This document shows positions 1,554 to 48,212 of a stretch of DNA of 64,000 nt, in pieces. Below the pieces are notes generated by a model. That model saw only the letters and a list, made by a program, of their open reading frames with translations. It had not been told where the DNA came from and searched no databases. The stretch's first letter is position 1, and each line of letters begins with the position of its first letter. The stretch is taken from assembly GCA_965178125.1 (NCBI GenBank), contig OZ237743.1, forward strand, positions 1,178,001-1,242,000, in the 5' to 3' direction. This DNA is from Bilabrum cf. latius. Lineage: Eukaryota. The translations under genes and the position numbers were made by a program.

Positions 1554-3505
1554 TCAAAGCATTAAACCGCCTTTTTTTCCTTTCCTTGATATAATTTCTT
1601 CTTTTTCATTTACGACCATTAAATCATTCTATCCGTGGATAATTAATTTCTATCCTTCTTCATTAATCTATTCTTTTTTATATTCACCTAATTCTTTACC
1701 TACTTTAAAATTTAATCTTTTGTTAAATGTGATACTGTCGGTGTGAATTCGTATAATATGTTTAGCGTTGTTCTTATTCACTTTCTTCATCAATCGTTGT
1801 CTTCCATATGCCAGAATAAAAGGTTTCAATTTTCCCCAGCTATATTTAAAGGGTACTTTATGTTTCAAATGATAAATAAATTCTCCGTCATTATCCATTT
1901 CTACACGGTCAATATCAAATTTATCTATATTTATTTTTTTATCGTCTTTTGATGTAATTGTCTTTTTAGAGGAACTACATAATTTACCCCATAATGAATT
2001 TAATATTTCTTTTGCTAGATATGATTTGCTTTTTAATTTGTAGAACATTGAGACATAGGATTTAAAAAGTGTTTCACTTTTGATATATTTATCATAGGTC
2101 ATAAAATTAAATTCGTCGCTTGACATCTCTATCTCACAACCATATTTAACAAACATATTCATATCTGTAAAGACATAATAAGTAAATTCATTTTCAAATA
2201 CCTTCATCATTTGAAAGATATTCGGGTCGCATTTTCCACGGCTTACCTTACATTTATAAATCCCTATTTCGTTTTTATTATTTATATATTTATTATCAAT
2301 TGTTTTATCGCGCGAAAATGCCATCGGCGAGCACACACCCGGGAGACCGTGGCGCAAGCAGCAGCCGAGCCCAACGGACCGAAGTCCCATCGATGTGCCG
2401 AGAAAGATGGATCACATCGAAGTAAATATTGGTTCGGATCCACTGGAGCGCCAAGTAGGCCGAGGATGGATGCACGATGTAGGCCGAACGGACCCACATG
2501 GACACGCGCGATAGTTGACACGGCGTTAAGCACTACCCGTGTGAGCACCAAACCGAACATAAATACTAAACAAAACAACGGCATGAGCCGGAACGGCCAC
2601 TGCCGCGCTGCCCCGCCCCCTTCCCTAAGGAAGGAGACGAGGGAATGCCTCGCAAGCTGCTGGTCGCACTGGCGGTTGCAACCTCGCGTTGGTAGACCGG
2701 AGCCTGTGTTCGAGTCTCGAACGCATCGCCACATCAACCCCGAACCCCATTCGGCGTTAGCATTAGGATTTCCATATGGTAGTAGTGAATTAGATGACAT
2801 AATGGCGGGGTAATGACTATTTATATCGTAGGTGATAAACTCCTCATATTGTCCCTTCTTGTGATATTGAATCCCGCCACGCGTTGAACCTTCAATAAAT
2901 ACCGCTTCCTCTGGGGTTATATCTGGTGGGCTATCTATCATCATATTAAACATTGTAAAGAAATGAAGGGCTGTTTGTCTGATTCCATATTTCATTACAT
3001 CTAATGATGGGTTCTCGTCGTGTAATTCATCACTTGCTATACTCAGCCTTAAGCTCCATTCTTTGATATCTTCATCCTCTGGGCATTCGTGAATGGTGTA
3101 ATGAAGATAATATTTCTTTGAATGATAATCGGTCAGGCTCTCAACTCTATATTTATCTTTTTCAATTATTTCGGCTTTATCGGTTAATTTAACAACCATA
3201 GATTTATGGCACCGCACAAATAAAGGTTTCATCCTCTAGACGGCTTTAAATGAACCATCTTTATATTCTAAACAAACCCTTTTAAAACTCTCTTTTTTCC
3301 TACTTAGATAATAGACCTTTATATCGTCTTTCTCTCTAATCTCTATATCCATTTTTAGACCTGAAACAAGTTTATAAAGGTTCTTTGTAGTTATGGGCTT
3401 ACCGTTAAATACCTTTTCTAGATACTTCACGGATTGAATGGGGTTATCATACTTTTTACCAAAGCATATATTTAATTGATTTAACACATTTTCGTAATTT
3501 ATCAT
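1554..3505 (-). pseudogene. Protein-primed family B DNA polymerase (~498 aa when restored), frameshifted by a 455-bp insertion at 2309-2763
   Basis: Motif A YDINSHYPAIM...LPYGNP, motif B KEILNSLWGK, motif C IHTDSI. ORFs 3236..3505 and 2282..3232 join over TAG. Removing 2309-2763 restores the frame (PYGNP-NKTIDNK). Stop is TGA at 1554. Confidence 0.85.
2309..2763. mobile_element. GC-rich non-coding insertion inside the polymerase gene (nested non-autonomous element or solo retroelement repeat)
   Basis: Abrupt GC-rich island in an AT-rich gene; AT dinucleotide at both junctions (2307-8, 2762-3); length not a multiple of 3; no GT-AG ends. Confidence 0.7.
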
Positions 3506-3583
3506 TTCCTATAGTATATTATATTTAATATATTTTTAAGCCATTTTAAACACATATTATAAAGTTTAAATTATAAAATGTAA

Positions 3584-3928
3584 TTATTGTTTCGGAGCAG
3601 TGAGGATTAATATAAATCTCTTCACTTGCTCATCGCTTAAGAAGGTATAACGAGAAGAAGGACTGAATAACATTACATCATCCTTTAATTTAAATGGTGA
3701 ACCAGTTCGCCAGCCTATGGGGTAGAGAGAGCTAACATACGCATCATAATTCTTTAAATGGGGCTTTTGTTTTAATAACCTCTAGATATATTTTTTTAAT
3801 AAAGTCTTCATTTCTAAATCATTATATCCATTATCATTTTCACGAAGAGGGAACACAAAATTATATACGGGCTTATTGTTTTTAACAAGTTGAGTTCTAA
3901 CGATTTGAATATCACTTAATTTAACCAT
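3584..3928 (-). CDS. 114-aa hypothetical protein with GWRTG motif, immediately upstream of pPolB
   Basis: ATG 3928 to TAA 3584 with one internal TAG; absent from the standard-code track. Confidence 0.65.
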
Positions 3929-3977
3929 TTTTATATATATAACCTATAGATATTTTATTTTTAAGCCAAATAGACGC

Positions 3978-3994
3978 GTTTAAAATGACTTAAA
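3978..3994 (+). promoter_or_regulatory. Conserved upstream motif GTTTAAAATGACTTAAA (putative promoter); minus-strand copies at 3535-3551, 5472-5488, 6077-6093, 19209-19225, 20318-20334
   Basis: Six near-identical copies, each 28-29 nt upstream of an ATG and oriented with the gene. Confidence 0.75.
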
Positions 3995-4022
3995 GATTTT
4001 ATTTTATTATAATATATATAGA

Positions 4023-4568
4023 ATGTCAAAATTTTAGAGTTATGAACCAAGCGAATTAATGGAACTTTTAGAAGAGGGAGCCATAAAGAAAGCCAAGAAA
4101 TATATTAATCAATTCTTCTTTAAAACTTTTAAAGGGATATTTTTTAATAATACCGTAGAAGATAAATTTGAACTGGTGGATGAAGACGAATTGAATGGTT
4201 TGTATCTAACCCCTGATATGAAGACCGACAGCGCCAAAAATCCATTTGTTCCATACATTTATATGTTTTCCAGTGAGCCCCCGATTTATTATACAGGAGA
4301 TTTTGAGAGTAAAGACCCCATAATGACAATTAAAAAGAAGGACAAACCCATCAAATATATTAATTTGTCATACGGTCAATTTATACCCGATGAAGTAGAG
4401 GAACCAGAAGAAGAAGAAGAACCAATAAGACCCAAGAAAAAGACTAAGAAGAGGAACAAGAAGAAACAAAAACGTGATAATAATAGAAATGTTGAGAAAC
4501 CAGATGATGAAGATGATGATGAAGAAGCCTTTAGAGAGCAACTTCAAGAAGCATTAAAAGATTTCTAA
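4023..4568 (+). CDS. 181-aa hypothetical protein with acidic/basic low-complexity C-terminus
   Basis: ORF 4059..4568 extends to ATG 4023 across one TAG; promoter motif 28 nt upstream. Confidence 0.75.
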
Positions 4569-4632
4569 ATAATTTAATATTTATACTAATATTAAATATG
4601 ATATCTTTATTAATAGTTGAACACCTTGACCA

Positions 4633-4810
4633 TCTAATAAAAGGGCTAGAATATTAAAATATATATGGTTATCTCTATAATAAAATCCATACGATGGCTA
4701 TATCCACAAATTGCGTATTAGTATATGTATTATTTAGCAAAACGTGGATGGATTAGTTTTATGAAGATGATTTGATTGATATCGTATTTCTAGCCCAAAA
4801 GTTCCATCAC
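4633..4810. repeat. Dispersed intergenic element, copy A (inverted relative to B and C)
   Basis: Reverse complement matches 9156-9334 and 20449-20580 (core CATCCACGTTTTG...TACGCAATTTGTGGATATAGCCATCGTATGG). Confidence 0.85.
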
Positions 4811-4890
4811 TTTAGAAGGTTGTAATATAGCCCCTTCTAACTCCCATCATCAATATGTTAAATATTAATTTTATCATTAATATCTAATTA

Positions 4891-5442
4891 TTATTTACCA
4901 ATATGACATTTATAACAAATTGAATATTTCATATCTTTAATTCTAGACACTCCGCATTTTTTACACGCCTTTTTTCCATATTTTGTAATCGTATAACAAG
5001 ACTTACAGGTTGTCCTCCAATCACCTCTAAGCATTTTACAAAGACACACATCACATCTTTTTTCATTCCTCTTTTTTTCCTCTAACTTTTTCTATTTCTT
5101 TTCTAACTCAATATGTCTTATTCCTTCACAGTGCTTATTATATCGGTCTCTTGCGACATCTTTTTTACATATTCCACACCACTAATATAAACATTTTTTA
5201 CGAATTTGATTTTCTTTATCCTTTATCATCTACTTTATACAACTAGAACCCACTTTAAAAACATATCCACTAGGGGTATGCTCTATTTCGTGCTCGGTTC
5301 GTATCTCGTGCCCACAAATACAATTACCCAATTTATCACCTTGAATAACGGTTGAGCCAATATGAATTAATTTCTTCTAAATGTCCATCCACTTTATATT
5401 ACCGGTATGTTCCTATATTTGTTCAATACACTTTTTACACAT
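4891..5442 (-). CDS. 183-aa multi-zinc-finger protein
   Basis: ATG 5442 to TAA 4891 with TAG=Q. CICGHEI...VGSSCI, CGIC..HCEGIRH and several CxxC pairs; promoter motif 29 nt upstream. Confidence 0.75.
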
Positions 5443-5593
5443 TCTCTATATAATATCTATATAATATAATCTTTAAGTCATTTTAAACGCGTTATATTAT
5501 AAATTAGGGGCTTAAAAATAGACACTATAGATATAAGTGATTATAATAATTAATATTATTAAAATATTAATTAATTAGACCGGTTAAATAGTT

Positions 5594-5706
5594 CTTTGGA
5601 AAGTATGAACCTACTTTGAAAAGTATGAACCAACTTCGGAAAGTATGAACCTACTTTGAAAAGTGTGAACCAACTTCGAAAAGTATGAACCTACTTTGGA
5701 AAGTAT
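5594..5706. repeat. Tandem array of ~5.6 x 20-bp units (CTTTGGAAAGTATGAACCTA)
   Basis: Directly visible; alternating CTA/CAA variants; TACTTT-NN-AAAGTA dyads across unit junctions. Confidence 0.9.
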
Positions 5707-5757
5707 CATTCACAGGTCATATATTTATTTAATATGTATAAATAAATAATAAAATGA

Positions 5758-6048
5758 TTATCTTGCCTTATATAATTGAATGGGTTTCTTTTCTAATAGA
5801 CAAACAGCCAAATAATGAAGTACAATGTCATCATCTCTATACTTATTCCTCGTCTATATAATACATTTATAGGTTGAATATTTGAGATATAATAGCTTCT
5901 CTCTACTGTCTTTTTTTAATTGATTGGTGATTTCTTTTACCTAATCACTGTTTGTAAAAATTACGGTCAAAACTCCATCAATTTCTGTCTGGATATAGAC
6001 ATCGTGTGTAGGCGGTAGATTCTCAATAATTTTATTTAACTTTTCCAT
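5758..6048 (-). CDS. 96-aa hypothetical protein
   Basis: ATG 6048 to TAA 5758 with two TAG; promoter motif 28 nt upstream. Confidence 0.65.
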
Positions 6049-6095
6049 TTGATATATATTAGTTAGTTAATATATATTTAAGTCATTTTAAACGT

Positions 6096-7985
6096 TTAAG
6101 ATGTGCTTAAAAGGGCCTCGAGATCTTCCCCACGCATAGCCTAGCCACCACGCATCGTAAGTTTTCCACCAAGCTTATTCAATTCTCCTCCACTATTTCC
6201 ATATCCATAATGTGCCGCCGCTTTGCCAATAGCGCTATTGTCTCCTGTTAGACTTTTGAGTGGTCCTATATTCCTAATGGTTTTCGCTAGGTTTTTAGCC
6301 TAATCACTTTTTGCCCAATCTTTAACCTGATTCCATCCGTGTTTAAAGGCTCGTCCAATCTTAGACCAGAAACGACCTTTTCCACCCATAACATTAGCAT
6401 AATTATCTAAATCCTCAAATACAGGCTAGAAACCTTTAGAACCACTTTCAGCATCACCACGTTTAGCAAGTTCAGAAAGCACTTTAGAAGGCTCAATAAG
6501 GGCGCCAGCCTCAGTATAGACACCGTTATCATTCACAAGAACATTATCATAAAACATCCATACTTTTATCTCGTATTTATCCTCATACGCACCATCCGCA
6601 TATTTATTATAAGGGTTGAAGCACTGAAGATTAACTTTAAGATTAAATCCAGTATTTACATTAGATTGAACACCAGCAAGTGTAGCAACATCTGAAGGTT
6701 TTAAAATCATATAGCAACCAGTACCGCGGTTTCCATCACTTCCATCAATTGATGAACCATAAAAGGATGAAGGAGGAAGAGCATATCCGTTCTTTCTACT
6801 AATTCTATATAATTCGTGTGGATTATCTACAGCCCCTAATTCCTCAGCGCTTCCATTGAGTGAGAAACCTATTCTTCTAATTGGTAAAGTTCTATTAGCC
6901 CAGTTAGGGTTATCATCACAACCAACAAGGCGGGCACATACCATAATAGCACTAGGGATACCATTCTCACGGGATAATTGATAATCAAAAGAAGTTAAAG
7001 AATTTTCAGTTGCGGATTTAGGTACAGGGACAGGCGCCTAAGACTAAAATTTAATTGTAGGCATATTATACATACAACGAGTCGGGGGGGCGTATCCACT
7101 CTAAAATTCAACTTCATCAACAAGAAGGGTCGTATTTGTTTCTCCTATAATTGACTAACCCGTTATTTTGTTAATATCTCCGTTATCTTTTGTAAAACTA
7201 GCCTTACACAGTCTTTGAATGGCATTTACGTGATAATCTAAATCAACCTGAAGGCTTCTCACACCGGTGAAATATTTAGCATTCACATCAACATCTGCTC
7301 CTTTTAGTGGTATAGCTTCTTGAAAATCAATAGTCCAATCAATTTGGTCTCTATTACCCGCAACGAAATCAGCATTTACAGTCGTAAAAGCATTCCCATA
7401 TGCTCCACGATAACTAAAGCTATCACCGGCACTATATCCAACATCCTAACCCCAAGCTAAAGGATTTTTAAGGGTATCACTTACTTCACGATAATCACCA
7501 ACAGTGTCAGGGCGTCCAACGGGTGAGATTGTGGATAAGGTTTCTTCACTGTTCATAACTTCGGTAGGTTCAGCCCATTCATAAACTTTTACTGTAAAAG
7601 GCTATCCATTAATTGTTAAAACACCACCTTGAAGCATTTTAAAGGTAGGTAATGAATTAGTTCCAAACCTAGATTTAAGATAAGATTGAGCGGTAATAGC
7701 ATCACCTCCAGCAGTTTGAGCTGGCACTGCTTGCTCTAGTTGTAGCCTAACTGTCATACGATGACGAAGACGAATAAACCTTGATACGGTTTTACTAGTA
7801 GGATTAACGGGGAAAGAAAGGGGAAGAAGAGAATTAGATTGATTAGATGATGGTCTAATTTCTCGGCGGGTATATTTTTGAACACCTAGTTCTGTTCCTA
7901 AACTAGCATCTTCAGGGGTTATCATTTGAAGGCTTTTAGGAGCCTTAATGCTTACTGGTAAATTCTGAACCATTTGTTGAGCCAT
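6096..7985 (-). CDS. Virophage major capsid protein (double jelly-roll), 629 aa
   Basis: One frame with 9 TAG and no TAA/TGA until 6096. Mavirus-MCP-like motifs ELYRISRKNGY, G.G..ILKPSD, VMGG, IRNIGPLK, YGYG. Confidence 0.92.
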
Positions 7986-8056
7986 TTTTTTATATATACA
8001 CTATAGATATAAATTTTTTAATATCTAAACATATTTTATAATCTTCTATAATTTAT

Positions 8057-9010
8057 TTAAAAATCTAAACTTAAATTATCGGTTTGTTTTTTAAATACTT
8101 GTTTAATGTGAGCTTCACCCCCGTTAAAATTCATTACGGGATACTTTTCATTTTGTTTATCAACCCAGTAGAACGCCATTGACACGCTCTTAAAGCTTCT
8201 ATCCTTCATCATTGAATACCAGCGGTAAGGATTAGAAACATATAATATATTTTCTATTGGTGAGCTGTCATTAGGATTATACGGGTAGCTGGTTAATATA
8301 GGGGATTTATTGACGGCTATAGAGCCACCAGTAGATGATTTTGTGGTCACCAATTCTTTATTCACTGGAATATCACTTTCTACGATAATAGATTTAACAG
8401 GGCACCAAGAATTTAAATTCGTCTATCTAGCCATAAAAACATAATCACCACTAGCAGGGGAATTATTATATGAAAGTTTAGCAAATAAATCACTCGGTGT
8501 GGTTGTTATTCCTTCATATTCAAATTTATCAAATAAAGCAAAAGCTTCAAAATTAACAAATAAATAATAATTATCTCTAAAATCTTCAGTTGTTGATAAA
8601 CTCCATTTATTATTTTCAAATTTAAAGACTGGTTTATCACCACTTGGAAGGCTTACCAAATCACAAATTCGGCTTAACTCTTCATTAAATTCATTTACAA
8701 TATCCTAATATGAATAATAAAATTTAGCTTTTTTACCTAGAACTATATAATCGCCTGCTCTGGCTCCTGATGTTTTATTCTCAAGAGTAAATTTTAAATA
8801 GGTTTTACCGCTGTCATCCTAATATTCAGGTTTAAACACCGGTAGCATAAATTTATTTAAATCCATCTCTTCAACAGCCGTTAAATAATTTTCACTTTGT
8901 TTTAATATTAAGCCTTCACGGGTTTCATTCACTACCGCCTATCTCGTCTAATTGTGGGGGACAGATGAACTAACTAAATTCAATCTTACAAATTCATCGC
9001 TATAACTCAT
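8057..9010 (-). CDS. Virophage minor capsid (penton) protein, 317 aa
   Basis: Fragments join over TAG. NYLTAVEE..LPVFKP, PVFKF..STTEDFR, PVKSIIVESDIPV resemble mavirus penton; lies between protease and MCP. Confidence 0.85.
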
Positions 9011-9155
9011 TTTATTTATATATTAAAGCTATACAAATAAATATTTATTAATAAACCTTATCTAATATTTCACCTTGATTTTTACCCTTCACTTTTACCA
9101 ATATATTTAAAAGTTTGATTGAATTTAGATGGATGAAAAATAGCCCTTCTAAAAC

Positions 9156-9334
9156 GATGGAACTTTTCTAAATAAAAGGGCTTATATCTTCATTTCACCT
9201 TCACAAGAGGCCCTACATCCACGTTTTGCTAGAAAACACTATAATATATACGCAATTTGTGGATATAGCCATCGTATGGATTTTATTTTAGAGATAATCA
9301 TATTTTATTATTTTATTCTAGCCCTTTTATTAGA
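9156..9334. repeat. Dispersed intergenic element, copy B
   Basis: Matches copies A and C; lies between protease stop and penton start. Confidence 0.85.
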
Positions 9335-9346
9335 AGGGCGGGGTAT

Positions 9347-9922
9347 TCAATGTAGAAGCAACGCCACTAACTAATCAGGACTAAGAGCCATAATTTTGGA
9401 TATTCTAAACATTTCATTTACAAACTAATCATTAGTTAAGAATGAGAAAACAGTTCTTAATAATGCCCATCTTCCACAAGTAGCACTCTAATTAGCATAA
9501 CTCTAAATAGGTTTATTATTATAGTCAATTTTCCAGCCGTGTAATTTCTACGTCAATAAATATTTAACTAGTGTGTTCTCTTCTCCTTCTCCTTGATACA
9601 ATTGGTTTCTATTAATAAATGGTTTCTATTGGTCGGGTTTTTCTCCATAGCTATCAAAAAAATAAATAGTTTTATTATTTTCGTCCTAAGTAAGAGCGCA
9701 ATAATGACCGTATGTGCTATTTAGTCCCGTCTTTTTATTAGGATAATAAATAATTACGCCGTCATAACCATCAAAAATATGTTCAATAGATGAGGTCTAT
9801 TTAATAATATCATCGTAAATAACTATTCTAGGTTTGTAATTCAAATGTGCTACACCTAATTTTTGAATTTCTAAAGGAGATAACGGTGTTTGGACTAGTC
9901 TATTTAAGTCGTTTATGTTCAT
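9347..9922 (-). CDS. Adenain-like maturation cysteine protease, 191 aa
   Basis: Invisible in the standard code (8 TAG). GHYCAL (His), FFDSYG (Asp), YNNKPI-Q(TAG)-S...ATCGRW (oxyanion Gln, catalytic Cys); ends TGA. Confidence 0.93.
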
Positions 9923-9930
9923 TTATATAT

Positions 9931-11001
9931 TCAATAGAGAAATATTTTTTTTGTGCTAACTACATAATTATTATCAACATTAATAGCAACATAACCAAAG
10001 AGAGGGAGAGAATGAAGGGTTTTTTTAATTCGTTTTCTAGTAGGAGCGTCAAAACTTAAGACTGTTTCTAAAATATATTTTAAACTTTTAGCTGTAATTG
10101 TTTTATAAATGATATGGGTTGTAATTTCGTTCATAATGGTTCGTGTCTTCATACCGTCGCTTATTTTGTGGGTGATGTCTAAAACGCTACTTGCTGTGTG
10201 CCTTCCTGTAGTTGCTAGGATTTCCAATAAAAAATAAGCCTTTGCTTTCTGGTTCCTTTTTTTAAAGCCTTCGTAATCATCCAGAATAAATAAATTAGGT
10301 TCAGCGGTCAATTTTTTAAAAAACTCAACATTTAATTTAAAACCTTTTTCTATTAAATCTTTCTCAGGTTTCAAATCCTCTATCTTTCTTTCAGCTTCAA
10401 TAACAACATCTAAAGGTTTAGATTTCATCAAAGAAGATTTCTTATATTTAAATTCTAATTTCATTTTTTTATAATAAGCCATTTTTTCCTTATATAAAGT
10501 GTTTTCATTCTCTTTAACCAAATCATCTATATCAATGAAGGTCGCGCCTTCTCTTTTATATTTAGGGTCTTGAATTGGTGATATAACATACATATTTTTA
10601 TATTTTAATCCTCTATACATCCTTATATAATGTAAAGCTAAATGACTTTTCCCGCTTCCACTCTTACCAAATAATCGCACATATTCACGCCCCTATGGAA
10701 AGAGCATAGGAAAAGGTAAATATTGACTATTATCTTTAATCGCAAATTCCTAAACTGACCGTATATATTCATCTTGTAATAGTTTATGTAATTGTTCCCT
10801 TTTCTTGTCCTTATCAACGTTATATCTTACTCGGCTTTCTCCGTAATAAGATTTTAAAACATCATCTGTTATCTCTTCCGCTTTGACGTGTTGAATATCT
10901 TTAGCGTTCGGGTCGTAATAAATAAACCGGTTCTATTGTGTTTTTTTGTATTTTTGAATAGCTACAATATGGCTATTTTCCGTATATTGTAAAGATAGCA
11001 T
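9931..11001 (-). CDS. FtsK/HerA (A32-like) genome packaging ATPase, 356 aa
   Basis: Walker A GKSGSGKS, Walker B FILDD, GRH arginine finger; extends to ATG 11001 over TAGs. Confidence 0.92.
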
Positions 11002-11093
11002 TATATATAATAATAAAATAAAATAAACCATTTATTCACACGGGTTTAAAATATTAAGTTGGTTCCTTCTTCTATCCTTCCTCACAAAAAAAG

Positions 11094-11909
11094 TTATAGA
11101 GACATAATTATATTTTTAATTTCCGCCCGTGTTTTCCTATTTATGTATTGGTCAATCCACGATATTATCTTATTAATATTTGCTTTAGAATACTTTGAAA
11201 ATTGTTTTATTATTTCCACATTTCCTAATGCTTTTCTCATTAGTCCTTTTAGGCTTTGAAATGATTTTGACTTCTCGCTTTGATGTCCTTTTATTCTTAG
11301 CATACTTTCTAATCGCATTCTTATGGAATATAAATATCCTAATGCTTCCCTATCAATTAAATCATTGACTCTTTTTTCATTCCTCTTCTCACCTCTTAAT
11401 TTAAATAAATCCTTCAATCGTTTTAATACTTTAAAATTATTAGAACCAAAATATTTATCTACATCTCTTATTAATCCATCTTTTACCTCGTCCTAATCTA
11501 TTTCATAATCACTTATATGATAAATTATGCTTATTTCATCTATAAATTTTCCATCAAAAGCCCAAAAATCAATTTTTAAGTATGGTTTATCTCCGCTAAA
11601 TATCTATTTATAAATGGTTTTAACGGGTGTAGATATGAATGCTTTTATGGTCTTGTATTTTTTATTACCAGCTTTAACCTCAATAAAATTAACCTAACTT
11701 ATAAAAACCTTTACAAATCTTATTAAACTATTTATAAATTCAGGCTCTACCCTCTAATATAAATCTATATCACTAGCAAACAAGGAATAATAAGGAATAG
11801 CATACGAACCATTTAAAAATAAATTAGCCCCCTTCTTAAAATTCACCTCATCAAATATATCGTTCTCGTATTCATTAAAATAAGCTTGTGTCAATTCATT
11901 AATTTTCAT
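11094..11909 (-). CDS. 271-aa protein with Pol-beta-type nucleotidyltransferase signature
   Basis: With TAG=Q: LNGSYAIPYYSLFASDIDLY (GS-x11-DxD), FIEVKAG, YLKIDF, KVLKR; directly upstream of the ATPase. Confidence 0.65.
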
Positions 11910-11966
11910 TATATATTATAAGTATGGATAAATAACAAATTATATATACCCAATATATACAATAAT

Positions 11967-12332
11967 ATGAGCGTTAAATAGAGCATAAATGATATGACAA
12001 ATAAAAGCCTTCATCATCTTGGAATAAACAGAAATGATTATAAAAAAGAAATTGATAAAATGGTTGAAGATACAGCAAACCAAATATTAAACGCAACCAC
12101 AAAAGGAAAGACAAAAGGGGGAGCTTTGAACCTTCTTGGTGGAAGTGTTAATTATATTGGAGGAAAAAAGAAGGGTTCCAAGAAAGCCCCTAAAACAAAA
12201 AAGCCCCGTAGTGCTAAACAATTAAAGAGGGATAAATTATTAAAGTGGTGTAGGTAGAAGGGAATGAATATGAAAGACAGCAATGCTTTTATAAAGAAAC
12301 ACGACCTTATTTCAAAAGACATTTAGTTTTAA
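11967..12332 (+). CDS. 121-aa basic protein with Gly-Gly motifs, putative virion core/DNA-binding protein
   Basis: ATG 11967 to TAA 12330 with TAG=Q; KGGAL, LLGGS, IGGKK; Lys-rich. Confidence 0.65.
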
Positions 12333-12406
12333 ATAGTGCTATATATACTTAAGGAAAAAACGAATAAAAACGAATTAAAGATATGCCCCCATATATATTA
12401 TACAAT

Positions 12407-13000
12407 ATGCCAGATTATAAGAAAGGAAAAATATATATTATGTATTCAACAGTAAAGAAGATTTTACCGTACATAGGCTCAACAGTTCAAACCCTATCAA
12501 AAAGGAAAGGGGGACACAAAGACGATTTTAGAAAATATAATCTAGGATAGCGTGGACGATGTTCATCTTTTGATGTATTAGAAGCGGGGAAATACAAAAT
12601 TGAACTTCTAGAGGAATACCCCTGTGATAATAAAATGTAGCTACTTAGAAGGGAAGGATATTGGTAGAGACAAATAAAATGTTGTAATAATAGAATAGCA
12701 GGACGAACACAAAAAGAATATGTTATAGATAACAAGGAAAAAATAAAAGAATATTAGAAAGAGTATCGTTTAAAGCATTCGGTAAGGCTCACCTAGGAGC
12801 GAAAGGAGAGGCGATTGAAAAATTTGGAGTCTGAAAAGGCCACAAATAAAAAGTATCGGGAAGCTAATAAAGAGAAAATACAAGCCCATAAGTCAGAAAA
12901 AATAATTTGTGAATTATGTGGAGCCACGGCGACAAGATGTCATTTGAGGAGACATCAAAGGACAGACAGATGTAAGAAAAACCGAAAGCAAGAAGTTTAA
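12407..13000 (+). CDS. GIY-YIG endonuclease with C-terminal zinc ribbon, 197 aa
   Basis: GKIY...YIGSTVQTLSKR..H, IELLEEYPC..REG, CELCG..HQRTDRC; continuous only if TAG is sense. Confidence 0.9.
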
Positions 13001-13077
13001 AAGACAGCCTACCAATTGACATATTATCTCTTAAGTTTATAAATTATTAATTATATCATTAATAATATATATATACA

Positions 13078-15159
13078 ATGTCAAACAATACAATTAATGA
13101 TTTACTGAAGGGTATTATGTAGAAACGGTCTAATCAACTTAGGATACAAAATGACCCACAAGTTAGATTAATGATATAGCAAGAAGAAGATGAAGCAGAA
13201 GCCAGAAGAAAAACCCTAAAAGATGATGCTTTCCTTCGTGCTAATTATGTTCCTATTGATGTTAGAATTGAAAGACAACAACAACAACAAGGAATTGAAA
13301 ATATTATTAAAAATATTAAGACTATGAACGCTAAAAAAGAATTACCAATTTATCAAATAGAAAATTTACAATCATTTATAAATAGAAATCCAGATTTACC
13401 GGATAAATTAAAAAGATAGGTTGTAGATACCATTAATAATATTAATGTAAGGTAGGTAGTAGGACCAGCAAGCGATAAGAAAAAGGTATTTGATGGAATT
13501 AAAAATATTAATATGAGATTATTTACAACCACTAAAGCACAACGGGACGCAGTATTAGAACAATTACCAAGCGATATGAGAGGATTAAAAGCAGTTCAAA
13601 TACGAAACGCTTTACGACAAGCTGGAATCACGAAAACCCCCCAAGGATAGAATGTTTCACAATTAACAAAAGTTGATGACGCTGTTAATGCTTTATAGGA
13701 TGTTTTAAATCCTCCTGAAGCCGTTCAACAATAGCAAAGAGATGACCCGCAACCTGATAGACCTGAACCAGATAACCCGCAACCGCCACCAGAACCAAGA
13801 CCAAAACCCCCTCCAACACCACAAGAAGCATTAAGCCCAGAACTACAAGAACAAATTGAAGCACTTGAAAGAGTAGCAAACGCCAATCCTTCAAGTAGTA
13901 GAAAAGCACCAAAGAAAACCGAACTAGCAAAAATACTTAGAGAGTCAAATGTTAAAGGTGTAAAAGGACGGTCTAAAGTTGATTTTATAAAAAGTGCTAA
14001 GAAGAAATTATCAGAACTTAAACAAGAAGCACAAGAACAAGAGGCATCACAATCATCAGGACAAGAAGAAGAAGGGGAGAACGCCAGTAGAAATTTATCA
14101 GGCTAGTTTTCAAAAGTATCACCCGCACCAGTTCCACCTAGTGGATTCTTACAATCACCAGAACCACAAGGACAATCACCAGAACAACAACAAGGACAAT
14201 CACCAGAACAACAACAAAGCACATTTGGTTCTTTAGGACAATCGGTTATGGATGGTATCAGTTATTTAACAGGAAAAACAGGCTCACAACCACAAGCACC
14301 AGCACCCCCCGCAGGTCAAGACAGAGGAAAAGGTGAAGCGATGGCAGTAGATGAAGATGGAGAACCTATTACAGATGAATTTGGAAGACAACTTACAGAA
14401 GTTCAATTCAGACAAAGACAAGCACAGGCAGAACGAGATGAAGCACAAAGACAACAAGAAGAAAAAGAAAGACAAGCTAGAGAACGGAGGGGAGCCCCAG
14501 ATGAAGAACCAAGAGATGGAGAAGCCGTAGAACCAGCACAACAAGCACAACCAGCAGAACCAGCACAAGAACCAGCAGAACCACAAGAACCACAGAAAAC
14601 AGATGATGAAATAGCCAAATCAATAGGAAAATCAATAAATGCTAAAGGCAATAAAAATGAAATATTATCATAGTTAAAAGCAAGAGGAATAAATCCAACA
14701 GACGCCAGCCCAACAATTAACACTTTAAAATATATTGTACGAAGGCTTAAAGCCGGAGTCTTACAACCTAATTTATCAACTGATGCTGTTAGGTCCTTAG
14801 TAGCTAGAGCAAATACAGAAGGAAGAGCAACCAGAAGTGATAGAACATTAGCAAAATCAAGACTAAACGATACGGGATATGAATTAAGCGGGAAGCCTCA
14901 ATGGACATATTCACCACCAGCTCAAGGTTTCGGAAATAAAGACCCTTATAATATGTTAATGAAAGCTATTAATTTAATTATTGATTAGAAAATAAAAACA
15001 TAGAACAGGGGCGGTAGTTGTGGATGTGGCAAGCATAAAGGAGGACAAATTGAACAAGAATATTTTAATGTAGCCGGTGGTAAAGGTAATCATAATGTGA
15101 AGGACAAGGTAAAACAAATCTTATATCAACACTTTGAAAAACTAAGATTATTAAAATAA
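13078..15159 (+). CDS. 693-aa Gln/Pro/Glu-rich hypothetical protein
   Basis: Single frame, only TAG interruptions (one inside a CAA CAA TAG CAA run), TAA at 15157. Confidence 0.85.
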
Positions 15160-15204
15160 TTAGTCTATAGGATAATAATATTTTGTTTTGTATAGATATA
15201 TATA

Positions 15205-15822
15205 ATGGCAGAGTTAGTAGCAACAGCAAGCACGGTTGGTGGGGTGTTGGTTCCTCTAGGATATGCGGGATGCTTCCTTTGGAACTTATGTTCCTCACTT
15301 GCGAATCGTAAAAAATTGTGTTTAGTCCTTCCACGAAAAGGAGGTAAAAGCTCACTTAACAAAAGTTTAACGTCTATAGACCCGAATATTCTATTAGTTG
15401 ATTTAGATGAAGTCCTTAAAGTTAATGCTGACACCAAACAGGTTTTATACCTAAACGAAGCAGAACGAAGAGGGGACTTATCAACGGCTAAATTATTAAA
15501 ATTTGAACTTATGAAAAAAAGTATTGAGTCTGTAAAGAAAAATTGGTTATAGAAAGCAGAACATAGAGCAGTCTTTTTAACAAGTGATTTTGAACTAGCA
15601 CAAGAAATATTCAAAAAATCCAGCATATGCGTAGCTATACCCAGCGATAAACTGTATAGCAAAATCCATAAAGATTTAGATAATGAAGATAAGGATGTAG
15701 CAAGACATTCACGAGCTGAATTTTTGAAAAGTTTTAACCCTAATGAGTATAGCGTGTATAATACGTTTGAAGGGCTTTCATAGATGGTTATGTCAGTCTA
15801 TAATATGACCTACAGAGTGTAA
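15205..15822 (+). CDS. 205-aa protein with N-terminal hydrophobic segment and P-loop-like motif
   Basis: LCLVLPRKGGKSSL ... LLVDLDE; extends over two TAG to TAA 15820. Confidence 0.7.
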
Positions 15823-15858
15823 TTATTTGAATATTATTAAAATATAAATTAATAATAT

Positions 15859-17016
15859 TTATTTAGTCTTATTATTAAAATTATCCTTTAGAGTTTTTGA
15901 TATATTTTTAGCCGGCTCCGTTGTTATCTTCCATTGAATTAAATATTCATCTTGTCCCTCTTGATTCTTTCTTCTCTTTATTATTTTACCTATATCATTC
16001 TAATATTTTCTTTTAGTAGCCTCATCAACATATGAATCTTTCCATTTAACCCTGTATGTATTATTTTTATTCTTTCTTATCAATTTTTCAATTATAAATA
16101 TATCTTGTGCTTTATTCTCGTATGGTTTAGATGCTAATAACAACTAATCTCTATTAAAGTATGTATAGGGTATGCCCTCAATTTTATATAATGGGGGGTT
16201 ATCTGGTTTTATTATTACTCTTTCAATTTTATAAGGCTTTACGCTATATTTAATATCTCCCGCCCTAAATGCTCCGGTTTCCTTTATCCCTTCTATACTT
16301 CTAGGATAATCTAATCCTATTCTTACCATTTCGCCCTCATTTAATACATCACATACTTCACCCTAACATCTAGGCGGTATATATGGTAGATTCTCCCTTT
16401 TCTTATTCAACATTTCCTATCTTGTTTTATAACGCTCGTTTAATATCTCCCTCAACTTTGGTATTAAATGTCTCCAGTTCGTAATAGTTGTCCCCGTTCT
16501 TATCTCCTATGAATTCAAATAATAAAATATAGCTCTCCCTATTTCCTCATTCAATCTCTCCACCAAAGCCATCTACGATTTACGCTTCACTCTTGAAAAT
16601 ATATGCTCTATCTTATTCTTCTTTAGATATTCTTTAAATAATTCATTATCAAATTCTCCCCCTTTATCTGTTCGTATCATTTTAGGTTTCATTAAATAAT
16701 TTCTTTTATAGATTTTTTGAAAAGCTTTTATCACATCCTCCGCCCCTCTATCCTTTAACTCTTCAAAATCTAACGCTAACCCGCTCGTATCTATCACAAC
16801 TAATAAATATTTTGAATCGTTCTTGGTAGCGTAAGGGAGATACAATAAATCAGCCTATTGGATAAGCCCCTCTTTAGTAGGTTTATAATATTTAACATAA
16901 TTCAATCCTTTCGGTTTCTTTATCGGCTTCATTAAATCGTTCGTGATAGACTTCGTATTAAATCCAAAACTTGACTCATTAATATCATTATCTTTTTTCT
17001 TTCCTCTCTTACTCAT
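15859..17016 (-). CDS. Retroviral-type (rve) DDE integrase with C-terminal chromodomain-like region, 385 aa
   Basis: Q(TAG)ADLLYLP..YLLVVID, RTDKGGEF, S-Q(TAG)-MALVERLN; C-terminal YRVKWK and EYLIQWK..TEP. Confidence 0.92.
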
Positions 17017-17056
17017 TATATATATTAATTGATTTTAATATTTATAAATTAATTAT

Positions 17057-17428
17057 TCACGAATTAAAAAGCCTATTAATAGCTTCATTCGTTTTAATGT
17101 GCTCCTTGGTGTCTCTTATCTCCTAATGGATATCAACCAGCTTTAATTTTTCTTTCTTAGTGAGTCCGTTCATCCTTCCTTTTAATGCTTTTAAAGTTTT
17201 CATATAAGGGGCTATAGCTTCTGCTTTCTTTTTGCTCACCTCTTTATATTCCACATTAAGAGCGGTTAATTTACTATTCACTTTATTTTTTAATTCTGTC
17301 TCTTTTATTTTTAGTTGCTTTAACTTTTGTTCTAATTCACGATTGGTCTTCTTAAAGTCTTCTACAATATCAAGAAATTCATTCTTTAACTTTGAGCGGG
17401 TATTAATCACTTTTTGTAATTTATCCAT
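17057..17428 (-). CDS. 123-aa coiled-coil hypothetical protein
   Basis: ORF 17123..17428 reads through TAG to TGA 17057. Confidence 0.7.
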
Positions 17429-17529
17429 TTATATATAATTACTAGATATTTTTTTTATTTTTTTTAAACTATAGAATTTTATAAAACGGGTTTAATAAAT
17501 TAAAATAAAATATTGGGCTACATTATAAT

Positions 17530-17946
17530 ATGTTCGTTAAGTTCCTGTTATCAAGTGTCAACGTTAAAAAGGTATTCCAGAATAAAAGCATCTCCACTTT
17601 TATGTCAATCGTATATATTTATGTTGAGAAGCACAAACCATCAATGTTAAAGCATTTTCAACTTGATGACCTTCGTGTCCCTCCAGATTGTAATGAACGA
17701 CTTAAAAAAAGAGTATTAAGTGAATTTGAAGAAATTGATTATATATCATATTTCGTTCAACCATTTAGAATAATACACAAGCTAAATGAAGAAAATGTTG
17801 AATGCCTAAGTGAAGACTTAAATGATACCGTAGCCATAGATTTATTGGTTAAAAAAGAGAAGGAAGCCATTGAGAAATCAATAAAGAAATAGAAGGATGA
17901 CATCATCAAAAAGGCTATAGATGACTTTATCTTACCCAAGGATTAA
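17530..17946 (+). CDS. 138-aa hypothetical protein
   Basis: ORF 17530..17892 reads through TAG to TAA 17944. Confidence 0.65.
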
Positions 17947-17993
17947 ACTATATATTAATAATAATAATAATAGTATTATTAAAATTCAAAAAT

Positions 17994-18341
17994 TTATTCT
18001 AAAAACTCAATATCAAACCATTCATTTGAATCATCATATTCTTCAGCATACATCAACGATAATTCTATATACTCTTCTAATTCACTATTAGTAAGGTTAT
18101 CAATTTCTTCTTCTTTCAATAGTTTGAAATCGGTTCCGTTGTCATCATTAAAACTTTCAACTTGACCTTCTGCTTCCTTTTTATATTCTTCTTTCCAATT
18201 ATCACTCCATACAACTCTCTTCGCTTGGTCTTTTAAAGTGTCAGTATAAAGCTTTTGTGCTTCTTCCTTATTATTAAACTTTTTAACCCAGTGTGTATGA
18301 TAACATTCACTACCCCACGCTAATGATACAATATAAACCAT
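17994..18341 (-). CDS. 115-aa acidic hypothetical protein
   Basis: Intact ORF ending TAA. Confidence 0.65.
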   Translation of the reverse strand: MVYIVSLAWGSECYHTHWVKKFNNKEEAQKLYTDTLKDQAKRVVWSDNWKEEYKKEAEGQVESFNDDNGTDFKLLKEEEIDNLTNSELEEYIELSLMYAEEYDDSNEWFDIEFLE

Positions 18342-18382
18342 ATCTATAATAATTAAAAATAAAATAATTATTATAATAAAAC

Positions 18383-19180
18383 TTAATTAAAATTATCCTC
18401 TATCTCGTCTCGCTCCTCGTTATCCAATACCCAATCTAATCTTGAAGGGTGCCACGCTCTAGAAATTAATTCTTCTTTGATTTTTTTAGTTTGTTCAATT
18501 GTTTCATCTTTCCGCTCTTCTAATGATGGGATTAATGTCGTGGAATAATCAATTCGTTCATCCTTAATTCCATTCTCCAAATGATTAAAACTAAAACAAT
18601 TAGAAAACATACATTCCATATCTACAACATTTGAAACATCCCAGTTATTTAAAGGTTGATTTAGTGAATGGCAATCATAAAACATTCCGCACATATCTTT
18701 AACATTTGAAACGTTCCAATTATTCAATGGTTGGTTAAATGAATGGCAATCATTAAACATTTCACTCATATCTTCAACATTTGAAACATTCCAATTATTC
18801 AATGGTTGGTTAAACGAATGACACTCATTAAACATACCGCCCATATCTTCAACATTTGAAACATCCCAGTTATTTAAAGGTTGATTAAACGAATGACACC
18901 CATAAAACATATCGGTCATATCTTTAACATTTGAAACATCCCATGAATTTATTGGTGATTCAATTATCATATTATCAAATAGGTTTAACATATTCGTAAT
19001 AAATGTTGTTACTAATAATTCAGGTTTCAAAAACTACAATGCGTGAAGAAGAAAATCTGTATCTTTAGCTACGTAATATGTTTTACCTTCAAATTTCACA
19101 ATATAATTATCTTTTCTAAAATAATATTCTTTTGGTTTTGTAGCTTTCAAGGTTCCATTTTCCCATTTTAAAACTTCCAT
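18383..19180 (-). CDS. DUF285/BspA-like 25-aa-repeat protein, copy 1 (265 aa)
   Basis: Repeats FNQPLNNWDVSNVEDMxxMFxxC; C-terminal EELI..AWHPSR; ATG 19180 reached over one TAG. Confidence 0.88.
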
Positions 19181-19269
19181 TCTGTATATACCTATAATAA
19201 ATATATTATTTAAGCCTTTTTAAACTCACACTATAATATTAAATAATCATTAATATTATTAAAATTCTA

Positions 19270-20289
19270 TTAATTAAAATTATCCTCTATCTCGTCTCGC
19301 TCCTCGTTATCCAATACCCAATCTAATCTTGAAGGGTGCCACGCTTTAGCAATTAATTCCTCTCTATATTTCTTTGTTTTTTTAATGGTTTTATGTTTTC
19401 GTCTTTCTAACAACGGTATCAATGTTGTAGAATAATCAATTCTTATACCCTTAATACCGTTCTCTAAATGATTGAAACTTTCACAATCTTTTAACATCTA
19501 AAACTTACTCTAGACATTGGAAACATCCCAATTATCCAATGGTTGATTGAAGTTCTAACATCCATTAAACATAGAGGATATATATTCAACGTTAGAAACA
19601 TCCCAATTACCCAATGGTTGATTGAATCTTGAACAAGAACCAAACATACCACTCATATCCCTAACATTACTAACATTCCAATCGTTCAATGATTGATTGA
19701 ATTCAGAATGATAGAACATAGACGACATTTTTTCAACCTTAGAAACATCCCAATTATTTAATGGTTGATTGAAGTTCCAACATCCATTAAACATAGAGGA
19801 CATATTTTCAACGTTAGAAACATTCCAGTTTGTTAATGATTGATTGAATCTTGAACAAGAACCAAACATACCACTCATATCCCTAACATTACTAACATTC
19901 CAATCGTTCAATGATTGATTGAATTTAGAACAAAAATAGAACATAGACGACATTTTTTCAACCTTAGAAACATCCCAATTGCTCAATGGTTGATTAAAGC
20001 TTCTACAACTTTGAAACATTAAACTCATATCCTTAACATTTGAAACATCCCAAGTATTCAAAGGTTCATTAAATTTATCCTATCCATTGAATACTTCACT
20101 CATATCTGTTATGAATGTTGTTATTATTTCATAAGGTTTATAGTCCTTCAAAAACCATCTTATATAATCTTTATCCATTGCTATATGATAGGTTTTCCCT
20201 TCAAAATTAACCTAAAATCCATTTCGTTCATAATATTCTTTTGGTTGTGTAGCTTTCAAGGTTCCATTTTCCCATTTTAATAATTCCAT
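19270..20289 (-). CDS. DUF285/BspA-like 25-aa-repeat protein, copy 2 (339 aa)
   Basis: Fragments 19270..19497 and 19555..20061 join over TAG; termini nearly identical to copy 1. Confidence 0.88.
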
Positions 20290-20448
20290 TCTGTATATAC
20301 CTATAATAAATATATTTTTTAAGTCAATTTAAACGCTCTATAACAATTTAAAAATAAAAGCGCGTTTGTTCCATTTGTGAAGGTATAAGCGAGGATAAGG
20401 GGGTATAATGAAGGTAGTTTAGAAGGTTGAATAATGGAGTCCCATAAA

Positions 20449-20580
20449 GTGATGGAACTTTTGGCTAGAAAATGGCTAGAGTCCCATAACACCTTCACAA
20501 GAGGGCTACATCCACGTTTTGATTAGAACTTACATATACTAATACGCAATTTATGGATATGGTCATCGTATAGAGTTTTA
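20449..20580. repeat. Dispersed intergenic element, copy C (partial)
   Basis: Matches copy B directly and copy A inverted. Confidence 0.8.
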
Positions 20581-20599
20581 TATATAATTGATTTTATAT

Positions 20600-27400: not shown

Positions 27401-28414
27401 GTTCCGCAGCGCCCTCCAGTGCAGGATGGGCAGGGCCTCGATGGCGCCTGGGAGCACGGCGAGGTTTGCGTCGCGGTCTGCCTGCGAGCCGAAGCTGGAT
27501 TGCTTCGATACGCTGGGTATGGCAGTGGCCCGGGGGGGCTGGTTCCCTTCGCTAGTGGTGGCGGGAGTCGTCGTTGTGCTGGGGGTTGAAATGCGAGTGC
27601 CAGTGGTGCCAGTGGCAGCCTTGCCCGGCGCACTTGCGAGAGCAGTGGGTGCCTCAGGGAGAGTGCTGGGGTCTGGCTGGTCTGCTCTTCCTGTTGTACG
27701 CTGCTGCAGCCAAACCAGATGCATGGATATACATCGTAGTATCGACGCTAGTGGTGACCACGGGAGGTCTGCGGCCTCGGGGGCAGTGCCGGCTGGGCTC
27801 GAACTGCCGTGCAGCTCGACATCGTGCTGTGATCGCAGCGCTGCGGCAAGCCCGCTAAATAGAAGCAGGTCGCGTTCCTTCGGTGAACTACCGGATGGTG
27901 CACCATCTGGCCGGAGTGCAACCGGAATTGACTGGGGAATGGACGCAGCTGATGGCCTGCAGCAAGCACACACGAGAGACGATTCCGCGTCCTGGTCTCC
28001 CTCGGCGCCATCAACAACGCGAAATGCACCCATCTTCGCCAATGACAAAATGGCAATAGAGGCTCTGGCAATTGGTGACAGTTGCGATTGCAGCCAGCAA
28101 TTTTCGACTAGCTGCGCGGGTTGAAAAAGGCGGGACCCCACTCGTCGTGCACAGACTTGGAACTCAGCGGCCATTCTCCGTACTCATTGAATACATCTTA
28201 CCAGCGACAATCTTTTGATAACATCTGGTACGTCTCCGCGAACAATCGCGGCTGCCAGTGATTTGCGAGCAGTGGCTACGACGCTTTTTGTTGGCGGGCC
28301 GTGGCTTGGAGTTACCAACTCTCTTGACACACGCAATGCCTCTCTGACAAACTCGGCATCAGACGCATGCGACCCGATCATTGTTCCGTGGAAATCATCG
28401 ATTGACGACTGCAT
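21416..28414 (-). CDS. Mut-7/EXD3-like 3'-5' exonuclease fused to YbaK-like and Mut7-C domains (~2300 aa); predicted intron 28112-28201
   Basis: Six ORF fragments share one frame, separated only by TAG. GLDAEWRP, QISDWQRRPL..QVRYAASDA (DEDDy); VKSLAF..GYRPGAFPP (YbaK); DANLGRLCRWLRVVG..SRCGSCN..CRTCGKLFW (Mut7-C). Stop TGA 21416. Confidence 0.85.
26884..27103. repeat. Coding minisatellite, ~9 x 24 bp (TAASSSTG)
   Basis: CAGTCCCTGTCGAGGACGATGCAG tandem copies. Confidence 0.92.
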
Positions 28415-48062: not shown

Positions 48063-48212
48063 GGTGGAATCACGTTTTCAGTGAAACGAAATAGTTCCTA
48101 TCGCTACCGATATTAATCACAGATCTTGCGTATGGGGCCTATATCGTTGCGACTTTCCGTTGGTCGCTTAACACCGGAAGTAATCCTCTTTTTGATCGCA
48201 AAGTTCTCATTT

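Follow-up and report, generated by a model that had tools for sequence, protein, structure and literature searches.

The window analyzed here is a stretch of 64,000 nucleotides (nt) from Bilabrum cf. latius (GenBank assembly GCA_965178125.1, contig OZ237743.1, positions 1,178,001–1,242,000 of the forward strand). From position 1 to ~20,600 it consists of an AT-rich element with a GC content of ~0.30, which abuts DNA with a GC content of 0.55–0.70; the left end of the window cuts the element, which continues beyond it. Virophage capsid genes, an rve integrase gene and a protein-primed DNA polymerase B (pPolB) gene are found together in the element, the combination that characterizes mavirus-like virophages. 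The element is regarded as an endogenous, mavirus-like virophage in which TAG is a sense codon, because of its Pfam families, the joining of its open reading frames (ORFs) and the relatives of its capsid protein. Six of its 22 genes are preceded by a 17-bp motif with the consensus GTTTAAAATGACTTAAA, and this motif, which probably represents a promoter core of a giant-virus type, is the subject of this report.

Position and spacing of the 17-bp motif

With 0–2 mismatches allowed, GTTTAAAATGACTTAAA is found at six sites, all of them in the AT-rich element and none elsewhere in the 64 kb, i.e. there are no copies in the 43 kb of host DNA of the window. All six copies are intergenic, each is oriented toward the next gene, and the end of the motif is 28 or 29 nt from the A of the ATG (Table 1), which confirms the spacing given in a preliminary description of this sequence. 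Within the window 14 of the 17 positions are invariant, including a G at position 1 and a C at position 12; the changes are at positions 8, 9 and 11. Position, orientation and spacing together support the earlier proposal that the motif is a promoter element.

The enrichment of the motif over AT-matched shuffled sequences was determined as well. When the AT-rich element alone is shuffled with its dinucleotides preserved, 0.045 sites are found on average at ≤2 mismatches (maximum 1 in 200 shuffles), compared with the six observed. Shuffles of the whole window give an expected 0.19 sites, and none of 100 reaches six; shuffled concatenated intergenic DNA (2,560 nt, GC 0.21) gives a mean of 0.14 at ≤3 mismatches (maximum 2 in 300). 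In the 60-nt upstream regions the top 10-mer that is not of the TATA type is GTTTAAAATG, present at 4 of 22 genes.

The six sites have about four independent origins: the DUF285 genes form a paralogous pair, and the promoters of genes 4023 and 5442 (named here by the positions of their ATGs) share 34 nt at 94% identity. The 123 nt upstream of the DUF285 paralogs are 88% identical. Copies 3535 and 6077 have little in common with the others outside of the motif.

The 17-mer is absent upstream of the major capsid protein (MCP), penton, protease, ATPase and integrase genes, as had been proposed, and the motif does mark a subset of genes that leaves out the capsid module. Weaker versions of the motif had been reported before three more genes, and of these only the copy before ATG 12407 has any support. 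It is a degenerate copy at positions 12363..12379 (+), identical to the consensus at 12 of 17 positions, with 27 nt between it and 12407, the second ATG of a GIY-YIG-like gene; about 45 matches of 12/17 quality occur in the element, so this copy is suggestive and not significant. Gene 3928 has a 3′ half-motif only, and upstream of 17530 there is no match within five mismatches. Gene 17428 has a 13/17 match on the minus strand (17453–17469), with 24 nt between it and the ATG.

Table 1. Motif copies, promoters and genes of the AT-rich element (window coordinates)
Feature	Positions	Strand	Remarks
pPolB gene	1554..3505	-	Interrupted by a GC-rich insert of ~450 bp (~2312–2758)
Motif copy GTTTAAAATGGCTTAAA	3535..3551	-	29 nt to ATG 3505, protein-primed DNA polymerase B gene
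Promoter of gene 3584–3928	3929..3960	-	TCTATAG and TATATA block as in the MCP promoter
3′ half-motif TGGCTTAAA	3960..3968	-	31 nt before ATG 3928, within the 94-bp divergent promoter region common to gene 4023
Motif copy, exact consensus	3978..3994	+	28 nt to ATG 4023, 181-aa acidic/basic protein, no family
Motif copy, exact consensus	5472..5488	-	29 nt to ATG 5442, 183-aa Cys-rich protein, no Pfam family
Motif copy, exact consensus	6077..6093	-	28 nt to ATG 6048, 96-aa protein; directly after the MCP stop codon
MCP gene	6096..7985	-	629 aa, 9 in-frame TAG codons; no upstream 17-mer
MCP promoter	7986..8017	-	ATATCTATAG, TATATA, A-run and ATG in this order
Penton, protease-like and packaging-ATPase-like genes	8057..11031	-	No 17-mer; TATATA adjoins ATG; probable ATPase start 11001
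rve integrase gene, chromodomain-like tail	15859..17016	-	No 17-mer; TATATA adjoins ATG
Motif copy GTTTAAAAAGGCTTAAA	19209..19225	-	28 nt to ATG 19180, DUF285 repeat protein
Motif copy GTTTAAATTGACTTAAA	20318..20334	-	28 nt to ATG 20289, DUF285 repeat protein, paralog of the ATG 19180 gene

ORFs of at least 100 amino acids cover 37% of the element under the standard code and 86% when TAG is read as sense, and ORFs that had been fragmented are then fused. The penton protein matches PF21507 (Sputnik V18/19-type) with 29.2 bits, above the cut-off of 27. Among the penton, protease and ATPase it is the only one with a Pfam match, the protease and ATPase being named from gene order and from reading of the sequence. 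The MCP displays a weak match to the V20-type capsid family PF22031 (E-value 0.0037, below the cut-off). Other matches are those of the integrase (rve, PF00665, E-value 5.8e-11), the N-terminal ORF of pPolB (PF03175, E-value 1.9e-7) and the DUF285 repeat proteins (PF03382, E-value 8e-55 for the ATG 19180 gene and 2.6e-80 for the ATG 20289 gene); DUF5872 is also among the Pfam families of the element. An Rfam search of window positions 1–21500 gave no match.

An all-against-all HMMER search found 55 relatives of the MCP, and the best full-length ones are 29%–32% identical to it. The best relative is a fragment with 98% identity that covers five of the TAG positions and has Q at four of these and A at one; TAG in the element is probably read as glutamine. 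A word-based protein search with the MCP matched nothing, and the MCP as a single protein found no loci in IMG/VR. An alignment of four MCP sequences found one relative there, contig L292, with 28% identity; in this contig TAG is the stop codon of 4 of 14 ORFs, TATA adjoins the ATGs and the 17-mer is absent. Seven sequencing runs from three studies contain the element, which two organisms carry, and no RNA run is listed among these.

Reading of TAG as sense is the nuclear code of the host and not a viral property. Host ORFs 21416–28183 (-), 30979–40248 (+), 40494–48077 (-) and 52109–59659 (-) have 2,255, 3,089, 2,527 and 2,516 codons with 9, 19, 5 and 34 in-frame TAGs, respectively, and each is split into adjacent pieces under the standard code. 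Three of these four long frames display eukaryote-type domains (Mut7-C, IBR and MORN). Host genes in the window appear to be free of introns.

The pPolB gene is divided into two frames by its insert, which has a GC content of 0.44–0.68, compared with ~0.3 around it. No further copy of the insert occurs in the window and Rfam does not match it, so that the enzyme is probably inactivated or requires removal of the insert. In addition, a non-coding repeat of ~200 bp is present in three copies with 76%–79% identity at window positions 4617–4820, 9145–9350 and 20445–20586; the first copy has the opposite orientation to the second and third, and the third is at the right end of the virophage. Their source could be terminal repeats or a mobile insert of small size. 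Should positions 4617 and 20586 be the real ends, the 4.6 kb on the left, where the polymerase gene is, would form a distinct or rearranged segment. Positions 5574–5726, in the gap between genes 5442 and 5758 and beside one of the motif promoters, have approximately 6–7 tandem copies of a 20-nt unit (CTTTGGAAAGTATGAACCTA-like).

Promoter build and similarity to known promoters

TATATA next to the ATG had been taken as the mark of the genes without the motif. However it is found within 20 nt of the ATG in 19 of the 22 genes, among them five of the six motif genes (3/22 have it at −40 to −21 and 2/22 at −60 to −41), and therefore it does not separate two gene classes and is not a mark of a late class. 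Two of these 19 genes, those for the ATPase (ORF 9931–11031) and the GIY-YIG protein (ORF 12383–13000), rest on a downstream start chosen partly for its TATATA, and with the first ATG kept the count is 17 of 22. The first ATGs of these two ORFs lack TATATA, and the downstream ATGs at 11001 and 12407 have it. The latter are the likelier starts, since TATATA is near them as it is near the ATG of nearly all other genes.

A TATA-type hexamer (TATA[TAC][AT]) begins 18–19 nt past the motif in five of the six copies; at the pPolB copy the nearest one is at +16 (TATACT). The build at the motif genes is core, spacer of 18–19 nt, TATATA, a few bases and ATG.

The tetramer TCTA is present upstream of MCP, 3928 and 17428 as previously described, but its frequency is that of chance, i.e. 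5 of 22 genes compared with 4.0 in shuffles (50 nt upstream) and 9 of 22 compared with 9.0 (100 nt). The longer TCTATAG is enriched (4 of 22 genes, 0.06 expected), with only 4–5 genes having it. MCP and gene 3928 have ATATCTATAG 16–25 nt before the ATG, and their promoters have a block of 33 nt in common (3928–3960).

Early genes of mimivirus and Cafeteria roenbergensis virus (CroV) carry AAAATTGA, which is found at 45% and 35% of genes, respectively, and CroV late genes carry TCTA; published early motifs stand before 35%–50% of genes (PMC5294985). The vaccinia early core AAAANTGAAAA is at −25 to −13, and African swine fever virus (ASFV) needs TATATA at the start site, −1 to +5 (PMC5294985). 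Early-expressed genes of Aureococcus anophagefferens virus (AaV) are enriched for a 20-nt pattern around AAAAATGA that is followed by an A-run (PMC5917014). PgVV/Gezel-14T, a cultured polinton-like virophage, has the AAAATTGA-type motif of its helper before the polymerase gene, a GIY-YIG gene and others, and mavirus and Sputnik use the late promoters of their helpers (bioRxiv 10.1101/2022.07.28.501842). The 12-mer WWWWWTGWWWWW has served to link polinton-like viruses with giant viruses (PMC11502894).

The window motif shares with the Mimiviridae-type early promoter an AT-rich core, AAAATGA or AAATTGA, which is oriented, lies upstream of ATGs and precedes replication-type genes. This promoter family is summarized as WWWWWTGW(WWWW), and four of the six copies fit WWWWWTGW at 8 of 8 positions in one register. 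Three copies match the AaV octamer AAAAATGA at 7 of 8 positions and one copy matches AAAATTGA at 7 of 8; none of the six is exact. To the extended AaV pattern the copies are identical at 14–16 of 20 positions, and here the A-run a few bases after TGA is in register with TTAAA of the window motif. Unlike the Mimiviridae-type promoter, the window motif lacks the exact published octamer, has G1 and C12 and shows a rigid spacing of 28–29 nt. It is best filed as a putative extended variant of this promoter type and not as a new kind of signal. An exact-string search of literature text with three sub-strings of the motif gave, among the papers listed, unrelated matches of the primer type only; published logos in figures and supplements may include the motif.

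A second comparison is with the late TCTA promoters of CroV and mavirus. Here the promoters of integrated virophages match those of a giant virus, which decides on the helper that reactivates them, and window genes MCP and 3928, with ATATCTATAG, resemble mavirus and the type-4 endogenous Cafeteria elements. Unlike that system, TCTA in the window is at chance, and the conspicuous motif is early-type and precedes 6 of 22 genes, not most. The bipartite promoters of poxviruses, ASFV and iridovirus IIV-6, in which an upstream core and a spacer precede an AT-rich initiator such as TATATA at the start site, are similar in build, with a 17-bp core, a fixed spacer of 18–19 nt and TATATA near the ATG in the window. 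However these are different viruses, the likeness is architectural only, and the start sites in the window are predicted ones.

The two DUF285 repeat proteins under the motif (window 18383–20289) recall the FNIP/FGxxFN repeat proteins of mavirus-like elements. FNIP/FGxxFN proteins are common to mavirus-like elements and CroV and have been discussed as a possible interaction interface (PMC10945749).

The motif in viral and metagenomic contigs

IMG/VR was scanned for exact matches to the IUPAC pattern of the six copies, GTTTAAAWWGRCTTAAA, which gave 83 stretches on 83 different contigs, 80 of them with flanks, and 79 evaluable matches. Most of the 83 fall inside phage genes. Sixteen of the 79 have an ATG at +15 to +35 that opens an ORF of ≥60 aa; 14 of the 16 are intergenic, and nine also have TATA between the motif and the ATG. 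The reversed pattern served as a control, with 80 loci with flanks analyzed among the matches listed, and 79 of these gave 4, 1 and 0 for the same three properties. Chance as the origin of the IMG/VR matches is ruled out by this control (14 vs 1 of 79).

Pfam analysis covered 115 of the 135 ORFs of the positive loci, and 18 of 20 ORFs in L165. Several contigs are giant-virus-like: L095 and L165, which are homologous (topoisomerase IB, RNase III, RNase H, Ulp1 protease, SNF2-type helicase and PEPCK), L098 (MutS, photolyase, A22 resolvase and DEAD helicase) and L106 (nucleocytoplasmic large DNA virus capsid, VLTF3 and A32). MutS is a gene linked with Mimiviridae. Others are polinton-like or of virophage size: L099 (prim-pol), L114 (DUF5906 helicase), L151 (D5 primase-helicase), L115 (pPolB and DUF5872), L117 and L120 (GIY-YIG, L120 also with a double-jelly-roll capsid and A32) and L107 (lipase).

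The genes directly downstream of the motif are primase-helicases (L099, L114, L151, L247), GIY-YIG/HNH endonucleases (L117, L120, L106), DUF5832 (L095, L165, L229), a methylase (L181), TFIIS (L423), SWIB (L469, L451) and genes without assignment; no capsid-module gene is directly behind the motif in these loci. Window gene 12383–13000 has homologs in the GIY-YIG genes of L117 and L120 (tblastn E-values 1.9e-21 and 5e-17), which have a perfect motif; the window gene itself keeps the degenerate copy only. Relaxed variants that bridge to the canonical octamer are also present, i.e. AAAAAATTGATTTAAA in L117 and ATTTAAATTGATTTAAA in L099, and the variants in the small contigs grade from the canonical octamer into the form seen in the window. 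In L106, AAATTGA is also found before VLTF3. Matches at promoter positions in giant-virus-like contigs are those of L095/L165, L098 and L106 (17-mer) and of L423, L469 and L472 (14-mer core), with 1–2 copies per 11–20 kb; the whole record of L098 has one match.

A scan of metagenomes for the exact 17-mer gave at least 117 stretches, all single. Among the matches listed, 14 pass a loose promoter filter, and approximately seven of these display an AT-rich/TATA build by eye (L181, L211, L223, L229, L247, L274 and L275); there is no multi-copy contig and no recognizable relative of this virophage among them. A scan with the 14-mer core gave, among the matches listed, 6 promoter-like matches of 79 evaluable. 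It says nothing firm on positions 1, 2 and 17, because only one of these six has the full 17-mer.

Thus giant-virus contigs do bear the motif in the same architecture, as the preliminary description had anticipated. However the contigs do not have the code that was expected with it: all motif-bearing contigs are well coded in the standard code with TAG as a stop, and they are considered to belong to other hosts.

In L099, L114, L117 and L120 most genes display by eye the build ATCT(A/C/T), ~10 nt, TATA, ATG. This appears to be a TCTA/late-type grammar like that of the window MCP promoter, and, standing beside one or two early-type 17-mers, would give the same two-tier layout as in the element. 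Contig L167 (IMGVR_UViG_3300045988_126816) has three tandem copies of a 23-nt unit with the motif at ~920–990 on the reverse-complement strand, the exact motif copies being at 10001–10017 and 10024–10040 (-) in locus coordinates. The ORF after these units is 274 aa in the standard code and 889 aa with TAG as sense. L167 is possibly a TAG-recoded phage unrelated to the virophage.

Possible function of the motif and the helper virus

The 17-mer is probably the upstream core of the early-class promoter used by mimivirus-like giant viruses (Imitervirales), a reading to which we give a probability of about 0.62. No RNA polymerase gene is found among the annotated virophage ORFs. When a compatible giant virus infects the host, its early transcription factor would bind the core, i.e. 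GTTTAAA, four variable bases and CTTAAA, with AAAATGA or AAATTGA in the middle. The viral polymerase would then start a fixed short distance downstream, in or just before the TATATA located 18–19 nt past the motif, and the resulting leader would have ~5–20 nt before the ATG; such a fixed start is proposed as the reason for the constant 28–29 nt between motif and ATG. The six genes on the core would be those for the DNA polymerase, the Cys-rich protein, two small proteins without assigned role and the two DUF285 repeat proteins. All other genes, those of the capsid module and the integrase among them, would use the proximal TATATA only, with MCP and gene 3928 adding the TCTATAG block as a putative later class. 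The motif, its spacing, its enrichment and its recurrence before non-capsid genes of giant-virus and polinton-like contigs are observed, and the binder, the start site and the timing of the motif genes are inferred.

Several observations weigh against the assignment to an Imitervirales early promoter. None of the six copies, which have C at position 12, fits the 12-mer WWWWWTGWWWWW, and where a "conserved" TG is expected copy 19209 has AAG and copy 3535 has TGG. The DUF285 paralogs keep the outer halves GTTTAAA and CTTAAA with the center changed at three positions, a pattern which would fit a bipartite GTTTAAA-N4-CTTAAA site better than a AAAATTGA-type octamer and leaves room for a dedicated factor. 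The resemblance of logos may serve as a lead and not as a test, because AT-rich patterns score high on AT-rich DNA. In giant-virus contigs the 17-mer occurs once per 11–20 kb, compared with the published motifs at 35%–50% of genes, and would therefore be at best a special strong form and not the general early promoter there. The split into classes inside the window is not significant alone, as the capsid-module genes are too few for a test. In addition, none of the motif-bearing contigs is accepted as the helper of this host, since they use the standard code.

Alternatively, the motif could be recognized, as a promoter or operator, by a factor that the virophage or the host encodes, e.g. the Cys-rich protein encoded at 4891–5442, and expression would then be independent of a helper or autoregulated. 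The outer halves, 10 bp apart and better kept than the center, suit a sequence-specific dimer or tandem binder; the Cys-rich protein is a candidate DNA binder among the motif genes with the motif on its own gene, and giant-virus contigs are poor in the motif, with one copy each. We nevertheless consider this unlikely, as the 17-mer precedes genes in giant-virus-like contigs that, by tblastn with all 23 window proteins, have no relative of the window capsid or Cys-rich gene. Its absence from the 43 kb of host DNA, and the fact that cytoplasmic giant-virus transcription typically uses AT-rich promoters built in this way (PMC5294985), also argue against such a factor. A giant virus might also read the 17-mer as a promoter of an intermediate or late class, or the 17-mer might be a strength element, without two temporal classes. 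The late promoters reported for mavirus and Sputnik point in this direction, and since the proximal TATATA is common to 19 of 22 genes the 17-mer could boost a common promoter. This too seems improbable: the core resembles early motifs and not TCTA or AT-rich late motifs, the block common to MCP and gene 3928 is a different one, and the genes behind the motif elsewhere are those of replication, endonuclease and transcription functions, with no capsid genes.

A duplicated promoter cassette, a selfish short repeat or a site without a transcriptional role (origin, packaging or integrase binding) would account for the spacing by inheritance. Two duplicate pairs are indeed present (34 nt at 94% and 123 nt at 88%), as are other dispersed non-coding repeats in the element. 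However copies 3535 and 6077 share little beyond the motif with the others, each copy points at a gene start, and the same downstream build recurs in unrelated contigs at 14 vs 1 of 79 in the composition-matched control, which makes this a very unlikely explanation.

With the early-promoter reading preferred, the motif would narrow the helper to a virus with Imitervirales-type transcription; as viruses of different hosts share it, no single virus can be picked out by it. To our knowledge all known virophage helpers lie in Imitervirales. The proposal that the motif is the fingerprint of an undescribed helper is not upheld, as the motif appears to be a variant of a published Mimiviridae-type early promoter and is present in several unrelated contigs. 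It would illustrate, as a variant, a known virophage strategy and not mark one specific helper. A promoter match is thought to decide which giant virus wakes an integrated virophage, as with the Cafeteria elements, where endogenous mavirus-like elements have type-specific promoters and CroV reactivates the CroV-matching type only (PMC8547959; PMC10945749).

A helper that replicates in this host would have to tolerate TAG as sense, because the long ORFs of the host itself hold in-frame TAGs, and a helper that avoids TAG as a stop is a reasonable expectation. The TAG code of the host would narrow the helper search among alternative-code giant-virus metagenome-assembled genomes (MAGs); MAGs in which alternative codes improve gene calling were reported in 2026, with code 15 among the codes tested (PMC13524828). 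Tentatively, and with more doubt than confidence, the 17-mer may be a deeply conserved, high-affinity "first-wave" element of Imitervirales type, kept nearly unchanged in sequence across virophages, polinton-like viruses and giant viruses in hosts with different codes, which in this host would predict an undiscovered giant virus with TAG as glutamine. If this is true, motif and code would provide a two-key search among those giant-virus MAGs for which a TAG-sense code gives the best gene calls.

The main yield is the corrected promoter grammar (core, 18–19 nt, TATATA, ATG), its conservation across viruses and the two-key search for a helper. The near-identical 17-mer in unrelated metagenomic viruses is a candidate for a portable promoter that responds to giant viruses. 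In this virophage, which bears capsid and integrase genes, the polymerase gene and five others appear to be driven by a giant-virus promoter of the early type. Use of an early-type promoter has so far been reported for a polinton-like virophage, with mavirus and Sputnik described as having late promoters (bioRxiv 10.1101/2022.07.28.501842).

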